From an uncultured Candidatus Saccharibacteria bacterium (GTDB taxonomy: Bacteria > Patescibacteriota > Minisyncoccia > Phycocordibacterales > CAYZPE01), in contig CAZVFV010000001.1 of the NCBI GenBank assembly GCA_964626625.1, forward strand, positions 1 through 43,220: a stretch of DNA of 43,220 nt, in the 5' to 3' direction. The notes below the pieces were generated by a model that saw only the letters and a program-made list of their open reading frames with translations, had not been told where the DNA came from and searched no databases. The position numbers were made by a program, and so were the translations under genes. This document shows positions 27,914 through 43,220 of this stretch, piece after piece; position 1 is the stretch's first letter, and each line of letters starts with the position of its first letter.

Positions 27914-27942
27914 TTGACATGTTTATTCAGTAATGTTAATTT
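27914..27942 (+). promoter_or_regulatory. Sigma-70-type promoter for the small basic protein gene
   Basis: TTGACA (27914-27919), a 17-nt spacer, then TAATTT (27937-27942). Confidence 0.55.
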
Positions 27943-28007
27943 AGTAAAAGAAAGTCTTGTATGCATGTCGTATACAAGCAAGATCAGAGTTCTTTCAGGA
28001 GAGTCCC

Positions 28008-28199
28008 ATGCTTGAGTTTTCCCGTAATCAGAAAAAGTCGGATGACAAAAAACCCAAACAAAAGGTGAAAGGTCGGGATTCGAAATACGAACAGCAGTTC
28101 GCTCGGACCAAAGCGAACAAGCGCAAAAATGTTTTCGGTTCCAGTCATGGCAAATACGAGACCCCTGAAGGCATGAGGAGCCACCAACCCGGACAGTGA
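28008..28199 (+). CDS. Hypothetical 63-aa highly basic, hydrophilic protein
   Basis: The start is taken at the internal ATG preceded by AGGAGAG (27997-28003). The sequence is MLEFSRNQKKSDDKKPKQKVKGRDSKYEQQFARTKANKRKNVFGSSHGKYETPEGMRSHQPGQ. It is the only plus-strand gene in a minus-strand block and has its own promoter and terminator. Confidence 0.6.
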   Translation: MLEFSRNQKKSDDKKPKQKVKGRDSKYEQQFARTKANKRKNVFGSSHGKYETPEGMRSHQPGQ

Positions 28200-28204
28200 A
28201 AAAC

Positions 28205-28238
28205 AAAAACCCAGCCGTTTACGGCTGGGTTTTTTCTT
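28205..28238 (+). terminator. Intrinsic terminator of the small basic protein gene
   Basis: acccagccg-ttta-cggctgggt, followed by tttttc and starting 6 nt after the stop codon. Confidence 0.85.
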
Positions 28239-38097: not shown

Positions 38098-38202
38098 ATT
38101 TAGACCTATTTACTATTTTGAGTAGAATTTCTTTATGCGTGCTCTCCTGCTTTACTGACAAATGTGCATTTTTTTATTTTCTCTTTTTCATCTTTACTCT
38201 CT

Positions 38203-40260
38203 CTAGATATCAATATTTGCTCTTCGTGCATTTGATTGAATAAATGCCTTACGAGCTGGAACATCAGTTCCCATAAGTATCTCAAACACCTTATCTGCTT
38301 CTTGACCATCTGCAATAGTGACCTGCTTCAAAATACGTCTCTCTGGATCCATGGTTGTTTCCCACAACTCTTCTGAGTTCATCTCTCCCAAACCTTTATA
38401 TCGTTGTATAGAAGCCTTAATCTTTGCTTTCTTGTCTACTACCTTAACAGGCTCTATGTCTTCATTTTCCTCTGAAGGTTCTCCTAAACCTTCGTCAACT
38501 TCAGTGTCACCAAGAATTTTAGTTTTTTCTTCATCTGAATATGCATAAAATATCTCTCTGCCTTTTTTAATCTTATAGAGTGGCGGTTGAGCAATGTAGA
38601 TAAATCCTCCATCAATAAGTGGTCGAAGAAAACGATAAAAAAGTGTAAGAAGAAGTGTTCTAATGTGCGCACCGTCAACGTCAGCATCGGTTGCAATAAT
38701 AACTTTATGATAACGAAGTTTAGCGATATCAAATGTATCTCCAATAGCAGCACCAAGTGCGACCACAAGATTCTTGATCTGTTCTGAAGTAAGTGCCTTG
38801 TCTAATCGAGCTCGTTCAATGTTTAAAATTTTTCCTCGTAATGGAAGAACAGCTTGGATCCTTCGGTCTCGTCCACTTTTTGCCGTACCTCCCGCAGAAT
38901 CCCCCTCCACAATAAATATTTCCGACTCTTCTGAGCTCTTTGACTGACAGTCCGCAAGTTTACCTGGTAAGGTCATTCCTTCTAAGATTCCTTTTCGAAG
39001 TACACTATCCTTTGCAGCTTTCGCAGCTTTACGAGCACGGAGCGCAAGTATCGCTTTACTTATAATCGCTCGGGCATCTTCTGGGTTCTCTTCAAGGAAC
39101 ATTTCAAAAGCTTCAGAGAAAACTGACTCCACCATACCTCGAGCCTCAACACTTCCAAGCTTTGCTTTTGTTTGACCTTCGAATTGAATTTCTCTAAGTT
39201 TAATTGAAATAGCAACAGTCAGTCCTTCAAGAACATCATCTCCAGTAAAGTTTTCTTCACTATCTTTAATAAGACCATTCTTGCGTCCATACGCATTAAT
39301 AATTCTTGTAAGAGCTGTTTTAAAACCGGTAACATGTGTTCCTCCTTCAGAGTTATAAATATTATTCGCAAAAGGAATAATACGAGACGTTAAGTCATCT
39401 ATATACTGAAGAGCAACTTCTACTGTTTCATATTCGCTCGTATTTTTTTCAACATAAAAAATATTTTTATGTACTGACTTGAAGAGTTGATTATAAAACG
39501 TAATGAGAGAAACCAAACCTCCTTCAAAATAAAAAGAAGTCGAAGGAATTTCTAACTGTAAATCATTGAGATAGAAAACATCTTCTGTTGGAATGTCGTT
39601 TTTGTACTCTCGTGCATCAAGCACAGTGATACGAAGACCTTTTACTAAATAAGCTTGCTGACGAAGATGGCTCACTATCTTTTCCCATGTAAAATAAATT
39701 TCTTTAAAAATAGAAATATCTGGCTCAAATGTCACAATTGTTCCATTTAGTTTTGATGGACCAACTTTTTTAACTGCCTGCTTTTTCTTTCCACATGAAT
39801 ACTCCTGAAAGAAATGTCCTCCATCACGGTACACATCAACACGAGTATAAACAGAAAGAGCATTTACCACAGATGCACCTACACCGTGTAAACCTCCAGA
39901 CACTTTATATCCATCACCACCAAATTTTCCTCCGGCATGGAGTGTTGTCATAATAGTTTCCAGAGCAGAAACTTTTGACTGCTTATGCATATCAACAGGG
40001 ATACCTCGACCGTTATCTACTACTCGTATACGGTTACCCGGAAGAAGTGCGACTTCAATATTGTTAGCAAAATTACCCATCGCTTCATCGCGAGAGTTAT
40101 CAAAAATTTCCCAAATAAGATGATGAAGTCCATCAGTACCTGTTGTACCGATATACATACCTGGACGCTTTCTTACAGGCTCAAGACCCTCAAGGACAGT
40201 AATGTCCTCAGCGCTATATGCTCCTTTTTTTACCTTTTTATCTTCTTTTTCTTTGGCCAT
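38203..40260 (-). CDS. gyrB: DNA gyrase subunit B
   Basis: 685 aa with the GHKL ATPase (LEGLEPVRKRPGMYIG, GGLHGVG), TOPRIM (EIFIVEGDSAGG) and IATDADVDGAHI. Confidence 0.97.
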   Translation of the reverse strand: MAKEKEDKKVKKGAYSAEDITVLEGLEPVRKRPGMYIGTTGTDGLHHLIWEIFDNSRDEAMGNFANNIEVALLPGNRIRVVDNGRGIPVDMHKQSKVSALETIMTTLHAGGKFGGDGYKVSGGLHGVGASVVNALSVYTRVDVYRDGGHFFQEYSCGKKKQAVKKVGPSKLNGTIVTFEPDISIFKEIYFTWEKIVSHLRQQAYLVKGLRITVLDAREYKNDIPTEDVFYLNDLQLEIPSTSFYFEGGLVSLITFYNQLFKSVHKNIFYVEKNTSEYETVEVALQYIDDLTSRIIPFANNIYNSEGGTHVTGFKTALTRIINAYGRKNGLIKDSEENFTGDDVLEGLTVAISIKLREIQFEGQTKAKLGSVEARGMVESVFSEAFEMFLEENPEDARAIISKAILALRARKAAKAAKDSVLRKGILEGMTLPGKLADCQSKSSEESEIFIVEGDSAGGTAKSGRDRRIQAVLPLRGKILNIERARLDKALTSEQIKNLVVALGAAIGDTFDIAKLRYHKVIIATDADVDGAHIRTLLLTLFYRFLRPLIDGGFIYIAQPPLYKIKKGREIFYAYSDEEKTKILGDTEVDEGLGEPSEENEDIEPVKVVDKKAKIKASIQRYKGLGEMNSEELWETTMDPERRILKQVTIADGQEADKVFEILMGTDVPARKAFIQSNARRANIDI

Positions 40261-40291
40261 AATTAAAAAAGCATATGCTTTTAGTTGAGTT

Positions 40292-40319
40292 ATTATAGCA
40301 AATTAACCCCTACAAACAA
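40292..40319 (-). promoter_or_regulatory. Candidate gyrB promoter
   Basis: On the minus strand, TTGTTT (40319-40314), a 16-nt spacer, then TATAAT (40297-40292). The 16-nt palindrome aaaagcatatgctttt (40267-40282) lies in the short 5' UTR. Confidence 0.45.
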
Positions 40320-40376
40320 AGGAAAATTGGGGATTTTAAAGGTGCTGTTTTAGGTAAAAAAACACGCCTTTTTTGA

Positions 40377-40405
40377 TTGACTTTTTTAGTTAAGTGTGAT
40401 AGTAT
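40377..40405 (+). promoter_or_regulatory. Sigma-70-type promoter with an extended -10, driving the orphan sRNA
   Basis: TTGACT (40377-40382), a 17-nt spacer ending in TGA, then TAGTAT (40400-40405). Confidence 0.6.
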
Positions 40406-40411
40406 ATATAC

Positions 40412-40538
40412 AGAGACGATCAGGGGAGGTTATCTATGTAGATACCTCAAGAATCGTCTGAATTCAATTCATGTTGCTCGCCGCCTAAAGCGAGCAACAT
40501 GCAAAACCCCTCACACAGTTATGTGTGAGGGGTTTTTT
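40412..40538 (+). ncRNA. Candidate roughly 125-nt small RNA with three hairpins (unknown family)
   Basis: Hairpin 1 is agacgat/atcgtct, enclosing gaggttatcta/tagatacctc. Hairpin 2 is the perfect 12-bp stem catgttgctcgc/gcgagcaacatg. Hairpin 3 is the terminator cccctcacaca-gtta-tgtgtgagggg plus T6. It lies antisense to the flanking pheT and gyrB genes and has no plausible ORF. Confidence 0.6.
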
Positions 40539-40583
40539 CATTCCTCCCTTTTCTAAAAGCTGATTTTTATATTGAAAAAATCA

Positions 40584-40626
40584 CGTCGAAAATTTCTAAT
40601 AACATCGTTATTAGAAATTTTCGACG
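40584..40626 (-). terminator. Intrinsic terminator after pheT
   Basis: Perfect 20-bp stem cgtcgaaaatttctaataac-atc-gttattagaaattttcgacg, followed on the minus strand by tgattttttc. Confidence 0.8.
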
Positions 40627-40646
40627 CAGAACCTAACAGTCAACAG

Positions 40647-42887
40647 CTACCTCACTGTCCACCCCTTCTTCTCAACCTCCCCTACTATTTGCTCCATTAC
40701 CTTGTTTATCTCTTCATCTGAAAGAGTTTTATCTTGAGACTGAAATACAAGTCTGAATGCATACGAAGTTTTTCCATCTTTTTCAAAGACATCAAATAAT
40801 GATATCTTCACAAGTAATTTCCCTGCATGTATTCGTATAAGCTTTTCTGTCTCCTTATCAGTTACCTCTTTTGGTACCCACAGAGCAATATCTCGTAGTA
40901 TAAACGGATAAACTGATATGTTTGTATATGTTTTCTTTTTTTGATTCAACTCCATACCATGCTCGCTAGCATCTCGAAGTTTTTCTATAATTTCTTCTAA
41001 ATTACATTCTATAGTCGAATCCTTTGTCATAAGATCAATACTCAATTCTTTTCTTAATATATTTAAAACATCCTGCAGAGTGTCTACCTCCCCCTCCTTC
41101 TTCCAACCCTTAGTATTTTTAACCGATATACATAAAGACACGTGTTCTTCACCATCTTTAGTAAACACTGTTCCAATTTCAAAAACTTTAATCTGGTTTA
41201 GACCCAAAAGTGGTGCATTGTATTCATTGAGTTTATGACTCTCTAAAACACCACGAGTTAAATTTTCCCGTACATATTTTTTATCTAAAGCGATAGGGTT
41301 TGCTATTTCCACCTTCCCTTCATTTCTAAATGAATATGTTTTTATTTCTGAGAATCCTTGTTTAGAAAGAAGATCTGTAATACGAAGTATGTAGTAGAAA
41401 AGTTTATTTACTTTTGGACTTACATTACTTTCTGGAAGTGCAACAGGAGCGACGTTATCGTATCCATGAATACGCCCAACTTCTTCGATAATGTTTTCTT
41501 TTAGATTTAGGTCGAGACGTCTGTATGGTGGAATTACCTTAAGCACATCTTTCTCGATACATACCTCACACTCAAGTGCTGTAAGAATCTTTTGTGCAGA
41601 AGTTAAAGAAATATGTATTCCAAGAACCCTTTTTATATCTTCTTGTCTAAGAGATATTTCCTTTTTTATGTGTGGCGATGGATATGTATCGCTCAAACCT
41701 TCATCTTTAGCTCCTGCAAGCTCCTCTAAAAGAGAAACTGCTCTCATAAGCCCTTCATGAACAAGCTCTGGAGATAATTCCTTTTCGAAACGAACACTTG
41801 ATTCAGTTCGAAGTTTTAAAGCCTGTGAAGTAAGTCTAGTTTGTACAGGATCGAAATTTGCAGACTCGAGCAGTATATCTGTTGTTTTCTCTGTAATAGA
41901 ACTTGCTTTACCACCTTTTATTCCGCCAATACCTAGAACCACATTAGTTTGCTTGTCTGTAATAAGAAGTGCAGAAGAAGGTAATTTATACTCAACATCA
42001 TCAAGGCCTATAAATTGCTCTCCTTCTGTGGCACCTCTTACATGCACATGACGCACACCTTCTTTTTCAAAAATATGAGAAAGGTCAAAAGCATGCAGTG
42101 GCTGTCCCATGTCCTGCATAACAAAATTTGTTATATCAACAACATTATTTATTGGTTTTTGACCAATTGATAGCAATCTCTCTTTAAGCCATTTTGGACT
42201 TTGACCAACCTTAACATTACGTAGAATTACAGCGCTGTATCGTGGAACAAGTTTTGGATTTTCAATTGATATTTGGAGTGTAGAACTCTTTTGCAGTTCT
42301 TTAGCTTGAACTTTTTTATTTAAAGGAATATCTAATATGGCACCGACTTCTCGAGCAATACCCTCATGAGAAAGACAGTCATGTGCTCTGTCTGGTAAAA
42401 CTTTAATATCAAAAATAGAATCTGTTTCTATATGTAAAAATTCCTTAAGTGGAGTTCCGACTTTAACTTCTTTTTCTATCACCCAAATCCCTTCGGCTTC
42501 TTTAGTAAAACCAAGCTCTTTTTCGGAACAAATCATTCCATTTGATTCAACACCTCGAATCTTTGAAACTTTAATCTCAAAATTACCTGGCAAAACTGCA
42601 CCCGGAAGCGCTACCGCAACAGTTTGTCCCTCTGCAACATTTACCGCTCCACAGACAATCTCTCGTCCCCCATCGCCAACATCCACTGTACAAATATGTA
42701 AACGATCAGCATTTGGATGTTTTTCTTTTTTGAGAACTTTACCAATAACAACATTATTAAAATGCCCACCCACTTCTTCGAGGCTCTCAATTTCAAATGC
42801 ATGAAAAGTAATCTTCTCTGCAATTAAAGCCGGAGAAGGCAATTTACTTTCGAAATAATCTTGAAGCCACTTATAGGAAATTTTCAT
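40647..42887 (-). CDS. pheT: Phenylalanine--tRNA ligase beta subunit
   Basis: 746 aa with MKISYKWLQDY, a tRNA-binding OB domain (HPNADRL), and B3/4, B5 and FDX-ACB-like C-terminal regions. Confidence 0.95.
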   Translation of the reverse strand: MKISYKWLQDYFESKLPSPALIAEKITFHAFEIESLEEVGGHFNNVVIGKVLKKEKHPNADRLHICTVDVGDGGREIVCGAVNVAEGQTVAVALPGAVLPGNFEIKVSKIRGVESNGMICSEKELGFTKEAEGIWVIEKEVKVGTPLKEFLHIETDSIFDIKVLPDRAHDCLSHEGIAREVGAILDIPLNKKVQAKELQKSSTLQISIENPKLVPRYSAVILRNVKVGQSPKWLKERLLSIGQKPINNVVDITNFVMQDMGQPLHAFDLSHIFEKEGVRHVHVRGATEGEQFIGLDDVEYKLPSSALLITDKQTNVVLGIGGIKGGKASSITEKTTDILLESANFDPVQTRLTSQALKLRTESSVRFEKELSPELVHEGLMRAVSLLEELAGAKDEGLSDTYPSPHIKKEISLRQEDIKRVLGIHISLTSAQKILTALECEVCIEKDVLKVIPPYRRLDLNLKENIIEEVGRIHGYDNVAPVALPESNVSPKVNKLFYYILRITDLLSKQGFSEIKTYSFRNEGKVEIANPIALDKKYVRENLTRGVLESHKLNEYNAPLLGLNQIKVFEIGTVFTKDGEEHVSLCISVKNTKGWKKEGEVDTLQDVLNILRKELSIDLMTKDSTIECNLEEIIEKLRDASEHGMELNQKKKTYTNISVYPFILRDIALWVPKEVTDKETEKLIRIHAGKLLVKISLFDVFEKDGKTSYAFRLVFQSQDKTLSDEEINKVMEQIVGEVEKKGWTVR

Positions 42888-43144
42888 CCCGTTAGAGATA
42901 GGAAACGCTTAATTCTGTTCTTAATAAAACGTTTTCCCATACCAGATTTTAAATATAATTCTCTCGACCGAGCATCGCCTTCATTAAGACATGCTTCATA
43001 GTAAATAAGTGTAAACGGTCCACGCTCTTTTGTATATGGAGACTTTCCATTATTATGTTGCCACAAGCGTTTCCGTAAGTTACTTGAGTATCCAGTATAG
43101 AATCCACTCGTCTTTTTACTTTTGATTATGTATGTGTAATGCAT
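42884..43144 (-). CDS. GIY-YIG nuclease superfamily protein (single-domain, 86 aa)
   Basis: YIIKSKKTSGFYTGYSSNLRKRLWQHN matches the GIY...YxG...R...H/N core. Its TGA stop overlaps the pheT ATG (ATGA). Confidence 0.85.
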   Translation of the reverse strand: MHYTYIIKSKKTSGFYTGYSSNLRKRLWQHNNGKSPYTKERGPFTLIYYEACLNEGDARSRELYLKSGMGKRFIKNRIKRFLSLTG

Positions 43145-43167
43145 AACTAAGGATCTCTAACGGGATC
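42884..43167 (-). mobile_element. GIY-YIG ORF cassette bounded by 14-bp perfect inverted repeats, inserted at the pheS-pheT junction
   Basis: The arms are atcccgttagagat (42886-42899) and atctctaacgggat (43153-43166). ATGA lies directly outside both ends on the coding (minus) strand. The ORF fills the space between the arms. Confidence 0.6.
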
Positions 43168-43170
43168 ATA

Positions 43171-43220
43171 TTAAAACTGATTTACAAGCCTCAGATCTCC
43201 GTTATACAGCATGCGCACAT
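43171..43220 (-). CDS. pheS: Phenylalanine--tRNA ligase alpha subunit, C-terminal fragment
   Basis: The reverse-strand frame reads VRMLYNGDLRLVNQF-stop, which matches the conserved PheS C-terminus (D[IV]R..Y.NDLRFL.QF). It runs off the window edge. Confidence 0.8.
   Translation of the reverse strand, partial: VRMLYNGDLRLVNQF

Follow-up and report, generated by a model that had tools for sequence, protein, structure and literature searches.

The window analysed here, a 43,220-nucleotide (nt) stretch of DNA that makes up contig C1 of the genome of an uncultured Candidatus Saccharibacteria bacterium (G000; 737 kb in 67 contigs, 97.5% complete, 40.6% G+C), carries between its gyrB and pheT genes a short plus-strand transcription unit with a promoter, two hairpins and a terminator but no open reading frame (ORF) of any length. 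A first-pass annotation took this unit for the gene of a stand-alone small RNA (sRNA). All orthologous loci outside the species, and several within it, carry at this place an ORF of 59-61 codons led by a Shine-Dalgarno (SD) sequence, and the unit is very probably the non-coding shell of that small protein gene, its body having been removed by a deletion of 181 nt. This is ordinary gene decay, not a dedicated sRNA gene. The parts of the unit, numbered here and below by position in the whole stretch, are these:

40377 to 40405, plus strand: promoter of the small-gene unit, with the -35 element TTGACT at 40377-82, a 17-nt spacer and the -10 element TAGTAT at 40400-05
40414 to 40459, plus strand: hairpin 1, a predicted stem-loop
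40423 to 40441, plus strand: SD-like tract inside hairpin 1, with GGGGAGG at 40423-29, 6 nt, ATG at 40436-38 and TAG at 40439-41
40469 to 40471, plus strand: deletion junction, at which the alignment places the 181 nt missing from intact alleles
40470 to 40501, plus strand: hairpin 2, a predicted fold with a stem of 12 base pairs (bp)
40503 to 40538, plus strand: hairpin 3, the intrinsic terminator, with its stem at 40503-40533 and T6 to 40538

What does the same site look like in relatives? In a DNA search that covered 60 of them, the part of the query that spans hairpin 1 (bases 38-92) and the part with hairpin 2 and the terminator (bases 94-164) match the congeneric genome G002 at 98-99% identity, and the two matching blocks lie 181 nt further apart there than in the window. 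The order of the G002 locus is a consensus-like promoter, an identical hairpin 1, AGGAGG, 6 nt, ATG, a 61-codon ORF and the same terminator, with the final five codons and the TAA stop of the ORF forming hairpin 2; the gyrB of this genome, which carries the intact gene at the same site, is 79% identical to the window's in DNA. Protein-based scans find the same 61-residue protein encoded on metagenome contigs, including the conspecific L031/L045, whose gyrB flank is 99.87% identical to the window's over 2986 nt, and L032, whose pheT flank is 99.8% identical over 2751 nt; the intact gene is also present on L026/L030, L027/L033 and L034. Further away, a third species of the genus, G001 (gyrB 81% and pheT 65% identical), has the whole arrangement in diverged form at this site, and a more distant lineage, L044, represented by a single sequencing-run contig, holds the same arrangement with the same gyrB/pheT synteny and a protein that is 44% identical. 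Intact copies of the 59-61-codon ORF lie at the following positions:

L026, 357 to 542
L022, 2757 to 2942
L041, 949 to 1134, minus strand
L044, 787 to 966

Of 401 genomes of the order, just two carry the ORF, those of the other members of the genus; no second copy was found in the window's own genome. Exact-pattern scans for hairpin 1, in sets of metagenome and genome contigs that apparently excluded records close to the window's genome, gave no match; it was the protein-based scans that recovered loci. As a separate observation, contigs L032, L034, L022, L029 and L031, compared with window positions 38200-43220, are mosaic around the cassette: their gyrB side is 79%, 83%, 89% or 99.9% identical, their pheT side is steady at 97-99.8%, and three contigs stop just past the terminator. 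This pattern represents either a recombination junction common to co-occurring species or assembler breaks and chimeras.

The segment that is missing from the window is precisely delimited; the lost 181 nt are the SD AGGAGG, the ATG and codons 1-56, exactly. At the junction, tgaattcaatt meets CAtgttg in the window (tgaattcaattCAtgttg), where the L034 allele reads tgaattcaattCAggagg...ggccgCAtgttg; the CA at 40470-71 is a microhomology of 2 nt, which the L034-type allele has at either end of the lost segment. Two independent contigs of the Joint Genome Institute (JGI) from sibling samples, Ga0163149_10051537 and Ga0163151_10066113 (L046, L047), share the junction; the first equals the window across all 386 nt of the intergenic region, and the second differs from it by one single-nucleotide polymorphism. 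Since two independent assemblies carry the same junction, the deletion is, on the evidence of these contigs, a real segregating allele and not an assembly artefact. Intact alleles come from Ga0163144, Ga0163150, Ga0226658 and a contig of the European Nucleotide Archive titled 'microbial mat metagenome', and the deleted form from Ga0163149 and Ga0163151; both forms thus occur across related samples. Because G002, G001 and L044 have the ORF at the same site, its presence is ancestral and the state of the window is a recent loss; ORF-less loci were seen in this one species only.

We propose the following course of events. The plus-strand gene that is situated between gyrB and pheT in one genus of Saccharibacteria and in lineage L044 runs from an extended -10 promoter through hairpin 1, an SD and ATG, and an ORF of 59-61 codons to hairpin 2, folded around the stop codon, and the terminator. 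In the strain of the window, a deletion of 181 nt would have brought hairpin 2 and the terminator almost next to hairpin 1, perhaps by replication slippage over the hairpin-rich coding DNA, a mechanism suggested by the 2-nt microhomology and the folding propensity only. The promoter is intact, and therefore an ORF-less transcript of ~127 nt is probably still made; it would consist of hairpin 1, a linker of 10 nt, hairpin 2 and the terminator. Most likely, this RNA is a functionless by-product of gene loss.

There are several indications that the lost ORF codes for a protein under purifying selection. An SD stands at a working distance in all four lineages (AGGAGG, AAGGAGG, GGAGA or GGAGG), and every allele and lineage has an ATG with an open frame of 59-61 codons; SD, ATG and ORF length are kept among lineages that are only 44-64% identical in protein. 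Additionally, the sense frame has the lowest ratio of nonsynonymous to synonymous differences (pN/pS) of the six frames in 15 of 15 pairwise comparisons (0.26-0.64), with a ratio near 1 for the fully open antisense frame. A family profile matches large multi-repeat proteins that Pfam identifies as TPR_10/TPR_12 (tetratricopeptide repeat, TPR; E 2e-8 to 1e-3), the match spanning residues ~25-56 (LGNH.DA.SLLNEAILIQ.YH.G) in the second half of the protein, and an AlphaFold2 model is a two-helix hairpin with a mean predicted local distance difference test score of 80. A Pfam search of the 61-residue protein itself returned no TPR match even at E <= 1, Foldseek against the PDB returned only generic helical-hairpin and TPR matches, all with E >= 1, Pfam, PHROGs and PADLOC searches gave nothing significant, and no relatives of the protein were found on viral contigs. 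From profile and model, the lost protein can be described as a putative small TPR-like helical hairpin, not assigned as a member of the TPR family.

Public data treat this gene unevenly. On the intact allele Ga0163144_10083295 (L045), the public call is a 77-residue antisense frame and not the 61-codon sense ORF, and the annotation of G001 begins the sense ORF at an internal start codon, which gives 54 amino acids; the family is a genus-restricted one that has been mis-annotated or missed. We rejected the antisense 77-residue ORF (L045:46-279) as the gene, its pN/pS being ~0.6-1.2 and its frame having stops in G001 and L044.

The hairpins that gave the unit its sRNA-like look can be understood as parts of an mRNA. 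In hairpin 1, an outer stem of 7 bp (AGACGAU/AUCGUCU) is separated by an internal loop (CAGGG / AAGA) from an inner stem of 9 bp, which is closed by the apical loop AUGU; the hairpin is identical in all close alleles. It exists in three distinct versions (window type, G001 and L044) that share one shape, differ in the inner stem and vary in the apical loop; on these three sequences RNAalifold finds 16 pairs, 4 of them with compensatory (double) changes. A covariance model finds one hairpin 1 in each of the three genomes of the genus, no match in the rest of the 401 genomes of the order and no further copies in the window's genome. By its position and covariation, hairpin 1 appears to be a conserved stem-loop in the 5' untranslated region (UTR) of the small gene. 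Its loop in L044, the 5-nt ACGUC, was considered as an ACGR loop of guanidine-II type and rejected; the window has AUGU. Hairpin 2 contains the last five codons of the gene, ATG TTG CTC GCC GCC (40471-85), with the TAA stop (40486-88) in its loop; the G001 equivalent likewise has the TAA in the loop and a differing inner stem, CCGCAGC/GCUGCGG. Its sole polymorphic site is an A/G at 40497, by which a U-A pair becomes U.G. The terminator is kept in G001 and L044 through compensatory changes. A search of related genomes for covariation had been suggested as a check of the sRNA proposal, with unconserved spacer as one outcome that would undo it; the hairpins did prove to be conserved and the region is not such a spacer, but they are conserved as elements of an mRNA and not of an sRNA.

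Every sequence feature in the original description of the unit was borne out. The promoter (TTGACT, 17 nt with TG, TAGTAT) is present as described, its spacer ending in TGa with the TG at 40397-98. By itself this match is not above chance in an AT-rich region (5 found against 6.1 expected); the promoter is credible because four diverged lineages (window, G002, G001 and L044) retain its layout, TTGAC(A/T)-16/17 nt-TGn-(-10), even though the sequence around it is not alignable between lineages. Transcription would start at about 40412. The three hairpins are likewise confirmed: the 131-nt stretch has a minimum free energy (MFE) of -64.1 kcal/mol, as against -29.4 +/- 3.7 in dinucleotide shuffles (z -9.5, with 0 of 200 shuffles as good). 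The third is a terminator, AAAACCCCUCACACA-GUUA-UGUGUGAGGGGUUUU followed by the T run (T6), with a G+C core of 11 bp in a stem that reaches 15 bp when A-U pairs are counted; it is partly bidirectional, the minus-strand side of the same stem having only UUUUG after it. With its own conserved promoter and terminator, the unit can be accepted as an independent plus-strand transcription unit, and not a UTR of gyrB or pheT. No known RNA family had been recognised, and an Rfam scan agrees, with no family at gathering score either in the window or in 40200-40700 scanned at permissive E-values; the best sub-threshold matches were the PyrR binding site, the trpB motif, RUF4 and the Phe leader, the top one at 34.3 bits against a gathering score of 54, and these matches aligned only to generic hairpin and terminator parts. 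The frames that are left in the ORF-less unit are ATG-TAG, MLLAA* and a 9-codon frame within the terminator, none of them with a free SD.

What might hairpin 1 do in the intact gene? The distance from the -10 to the base of hairpin 1 is 8 nt in all four lineages, which would put the hairpin at the very 5' end of the RNA. We tentatively suggest, at somewhat less than even confidence, that it is a 5'-terminal stabiliser or recognition stem-loop that acts against 5'-end-dependent decay, a role drawn from geometry, covariation and the inventory of RNases. The window's genome encodes RNase J (497 bits) and RNase Y (591 bits), both above cut-offs (C14:9847-11502 and C51:1962-3452, respectively), and lacks RNase E/G; in other words, its RNA decay machinery is of the Bacillus type. 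In Bacillus-type decay, 5' structures or bound ribosomes are described as blocking degradation in the 5'-to-3' direction (PMC7509114; see also PMC5737220). The first of these sources cites 5'-terminal stem-loops as established stabilisers of mRNA (Emory 1992) and SD-like leaders of the STAB-SD type as a separate established class (Agaisse & Lereclus 1996).

A number of points weigh against this explanation of the unit. The slippage mechanism is based on a microhomology of just 2 nt; the promoter and all three structured elements have been spared, and no further decay mutations are seen. This absence of decay fits a very recent deletion, but it fits a retained RNA function equally well. Additionally, the start site is inferred, as are the 127-nt RNA and its abundance; there are only three distinct hairpin 1 sequences, such that the covariation statistics are thin, and the bases of the internal loop (CAGGG / AAGA) keep their sequence, more than a simple stabiliser would require; the conserved internal loop hints at specific recognition or a binding partner.

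These points bear on the alternative that survives best, namely that the transcript has a job of its own at the RNA level, for example through hairpin 1, whose conserved internal loop could bind a protein or pair with a target, and that the ORF-less allele keeps it. The locus would then be an mRNA turning into a small RNA, a dual-function transcript made up of a chain of selected hairpins, of which the deletion allele keeps the RNA role of hairpin 1 and drops the TPR-like protein. We hold this to be unlikely, at the level of a minority view that deserves to be kept. In its favour, the deletion took nothing but the SD and ORF, and the promoter and the three structured modules are untouched; the deletion allele comes from three assemblies, with a shared polymorphism and no sign of mutational decay; and the alleles (L026/L027/L034/L022) agree at 98-100% in hairpin 1, hairpin 2 and the terminator, while their ORFs differ at synonymous sites (pS) by 0.10-0.33, in clustered patches despite near-identical flanks. 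The spacer to pheT, however, is as invariant as the hairpins, and therefore the contrast reflects a fast-diverging ORF and not specially protected hairpins. The confinement of the ORF-less locus to one species also speaks against it, as does the lack of any evident unpaired, conserved 'seed' besides the internal loop.

The intact mRNA itself is extraordinarily structured. Against shuffles, the full-length form gives z of -12.8, -11.4, -8.5 and -7.1 in four versions, and for the interior of the ORF by itself z is -5.5 to -6.5 in three lineages. The G+C content at third codon positions (GC3) of the intact ORF is 0.67-0.75, in a genome of 40.6% G+C. One internal ORF hairpin still pairs in G001 by way of two double substitutions; other internal hairpins shift position between lineages, and the covariation term of the consensus fold is unfavourable (+3.6). 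The extreme mRNA structure, the high GC3 and the clustered divergence of the ORF are the reasons for which the dual-function possibility is kept at its low but real level. The clustered divergence suggests allele exchange, balancing selection or palindrome-templated mutation; hypermutation by a diversity-generating retroelement was considered and set aside, the changes being by eye (uncounted) mostly ordinary transitions that are not confined to adenines. As side observations, the intact coding region contains perfect palindromes of 12-14 bp, e.g. GCTTCGTTGAGG-AAGT-CCTCAACGAAGC, and the allele of the G002 species is nearer to L026 than L026 is to L027.

Next in order is the model of the first-pass annotation itself, in which a stand-alone sRNA presents SD-ATG-TAG at the tip of hairpin 1 as a trap for 30S subunits or as a mimic of SD/anti-SD pairing. 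We consider this very improbable. The motif GGGGAGG-6 nt-ATG-TAG is there as described, with its AUG in the apical loop of the predicted fold, and the accompanying remark that core genes rarely use an SD holds as well: a 4-mer SD core occurs in -18..-5 for 11.9% of 672 long ORFs, where random positions give 8.2%, an approximate count in which starts were taken as the first ATG. The genome, a metagenome-assembled one, is without a 16S gene; most lineages of the candidate phyla radiation (CPR) outside a subgroup of Parcubacteria are reported to retain the anti-SD motif (PMC9297842), and STAB-SD, through a reference that PMC7509114 cites, shows that an SD without a gene can stabilise RNA. The orthologous leaders, however, do not keep the motif. 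In G001, hairpin 1 (AGGGUUAGGGGC...AUGGUAG) has no GGAGG and its AUG (AUG GUA GGU) opens an 8-codon frame, and in L044 (GGGUGGGUU...ACGUC loop) it is without AUG, UAG or GGAGG; the GGAGG core and the AUG-UAG pair are confined to window-type alleles. Furthermore, the GAGGU of the SD-like tract is predicted to pair with ACCUC in the inner stem, in both the MFE and the centroid structure, and in all relatives hairpin 1 precedes a real SD-led ORF.

It is about as improbable that the longer form is a structured non-coding RNA of ~310 nt, with the 61-codon frame incidental and a shorter isoform present in the window. Such an RNA would account for the structure of the ORF interior and for the internal hairpin that pairs in G001 through two double changes, and some alleles have an open antisense frame as well, the one that the gene caller picked in L045. 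It would leave unexplained that the sense frame has the lowest pN/pS in every comparison, with antisense frames near 1, and that SD, ATG and ORF length are conserved in spite of the divergence in protein, with a likeness to TPR_10/12; the unfavourable covariation term and the shifting internal hairpins also argue against it. Finally, that the ORF-bearing form was derived by insertion of 181 nt into an ancestral sRNA gene, or that the gap is an assembly artefact, can be given hardly any credence: presence and absence alone give no direction without an outgroup and several contigs break beside the cassette, but the ORF occupies this one site in G002, G001 and L044, three lineages of increasing distance, its last five codons and stop are embedded in hairpin 2, such that an insert would need in-frame fusion, the ORF-less form is confined to one species, and the same junction is found in three separate assemblies.

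With the remnant of a small protein gene as the preferred reading, we turn to the surroundings of the unit. The flanking genes are on the minus strand and have signals of their own, as the first-pass annotation had stated:

38203 to 40260, minus strand: gyrB, flanking gene of the unit
40293 to 40301, minus strand: predicted extended -10 of gyrB, TGcTATAAT, read from the sequence and back to back with the small-gene promoter
40582 to 40628, minus strand: terminator of pheT, a 20-bp A+T-rich stem and then a T run
40647 to 42887, minus strand: pheT, flanking gene of the unit

The attatagca block of the gyrB promoter is conserved across alleles. Copies of the region of the pheT terminator (40549-40640), 80-89% identical to it, lie at unrelated sites in G001 and G002, and contig C12 of the window's own genome has a partial match of 30 nt; the region may represent a small terminator or palindrome that is repeated. 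An exact look-up of the PheT protein matched no record. Directly upstream of pheT, at 42884-43144, lies an 86-residue ORF of the GIY-YIG family (Pfam PF01541, E 8.5e-16). Elsewhere in the window, at 27917-28236, there is a second plus-strand small-gene unit between minus-strand core genes, made up of TTGACA-17-TAATTT, a 5' hairpin, the SD GGAGA, a basic ORF of 63 codons and a strong terminator; its build is like that of the intact form of the deleted gene, but it is far less structured (z -3.3 for 27948-28236).

This locus carries a caution for the study of reduced genomes such as those of Saccharibacteria; a unit of promoter, hairpins and terminator that lacks an ORF can be the shell of a deleted small gene, and only comparison with sister strains exposes such shells. 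It also defines a genus-restricted small-protein gene whose 5' stem-loop is conserved and whose coding region is unusually rich in hairpins, and documents a polymorphism of gene presence and absence across related samples of what is apparently one microbial-mat system. If the transcript does have a dual function, the sister samples with both alleles would be a natural experiment in which the role of the RNA can be told apart from that of the protein, and if the ORF-less RNA is functional, the locus would be a dated case of an mRNA giving rise to an sRNA.

How does the unit compare with known systems? As in STAB-SD elements (the leader of Bacillus thuringiensis cryIIIA) and start-stop ORFs, the window-type leader has an SD-like GGGGAGG away from the real start, followed by ATG-TAG. 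Unlike in those elements, the tract is predicted to be base-paired and the motif is not conserved in the orthologous leaders of G001 and L044, in which the ATG-TAG is not kept as a frame or is absent, and we reject the unit's membership of this class. For the lost protein, the nearest likeness is to TPR_10/TPR_12 proteins (PF13374, PF13424), single repeats of which match residues ~25-56 and share the two-helix hairpin of the model; unlike the large TPR_12 proteins, it has only 61 residues, or about one and a half repeats. Kinship with leader-derived or dual-function sRNAs is a possibility by analogy. An RNA that runs from promoter to terminator and is built solely of former UTR parts is the raw material of leader- or decay-derived sRNAs (such as the riboswitch-derived SreA/SreB of Listeria), and the intact form, like the dual-function RNAs SgrS/SgrT, RNAIII/hld and SR1/SR1P, is highly structured and codes for a small protein.

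Closer parallels are found in 5' stabilisers and in gene remnants. Like the 5' UTR of Escherichia coli ompA and the aprE and ermC leaders of Bacillus subtilis, the gene would have its stem-loop ~1-2 nt from the 5' end of the RNA, and as with such stabilisers the structure of hairpin 1 is kept by compensatory changes, the host has RNase J/Y and a terminator hairpin closes the 3' end. Unlike in the ompA, aprE and ermC leaders, the internal-loop bases of hairpin 1 are conserved, and it has no sequence homology to them. With gene remnants that result from internal deletion, the window unit shares an intact orthologue at the same site in sister strains, defined breakpoints and a short microhomology, and as in the remnants that reductive decay leaves of accessory genes in host-dependent bacteria, the SD, the start and most codons are lost and the regulatory flanks stay. 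Unlike the usual remnants, however, it keeps a full promoter, 5' stem-loop and terminator, such that it mimics an sRNA gene, and both of its alleles still occur.

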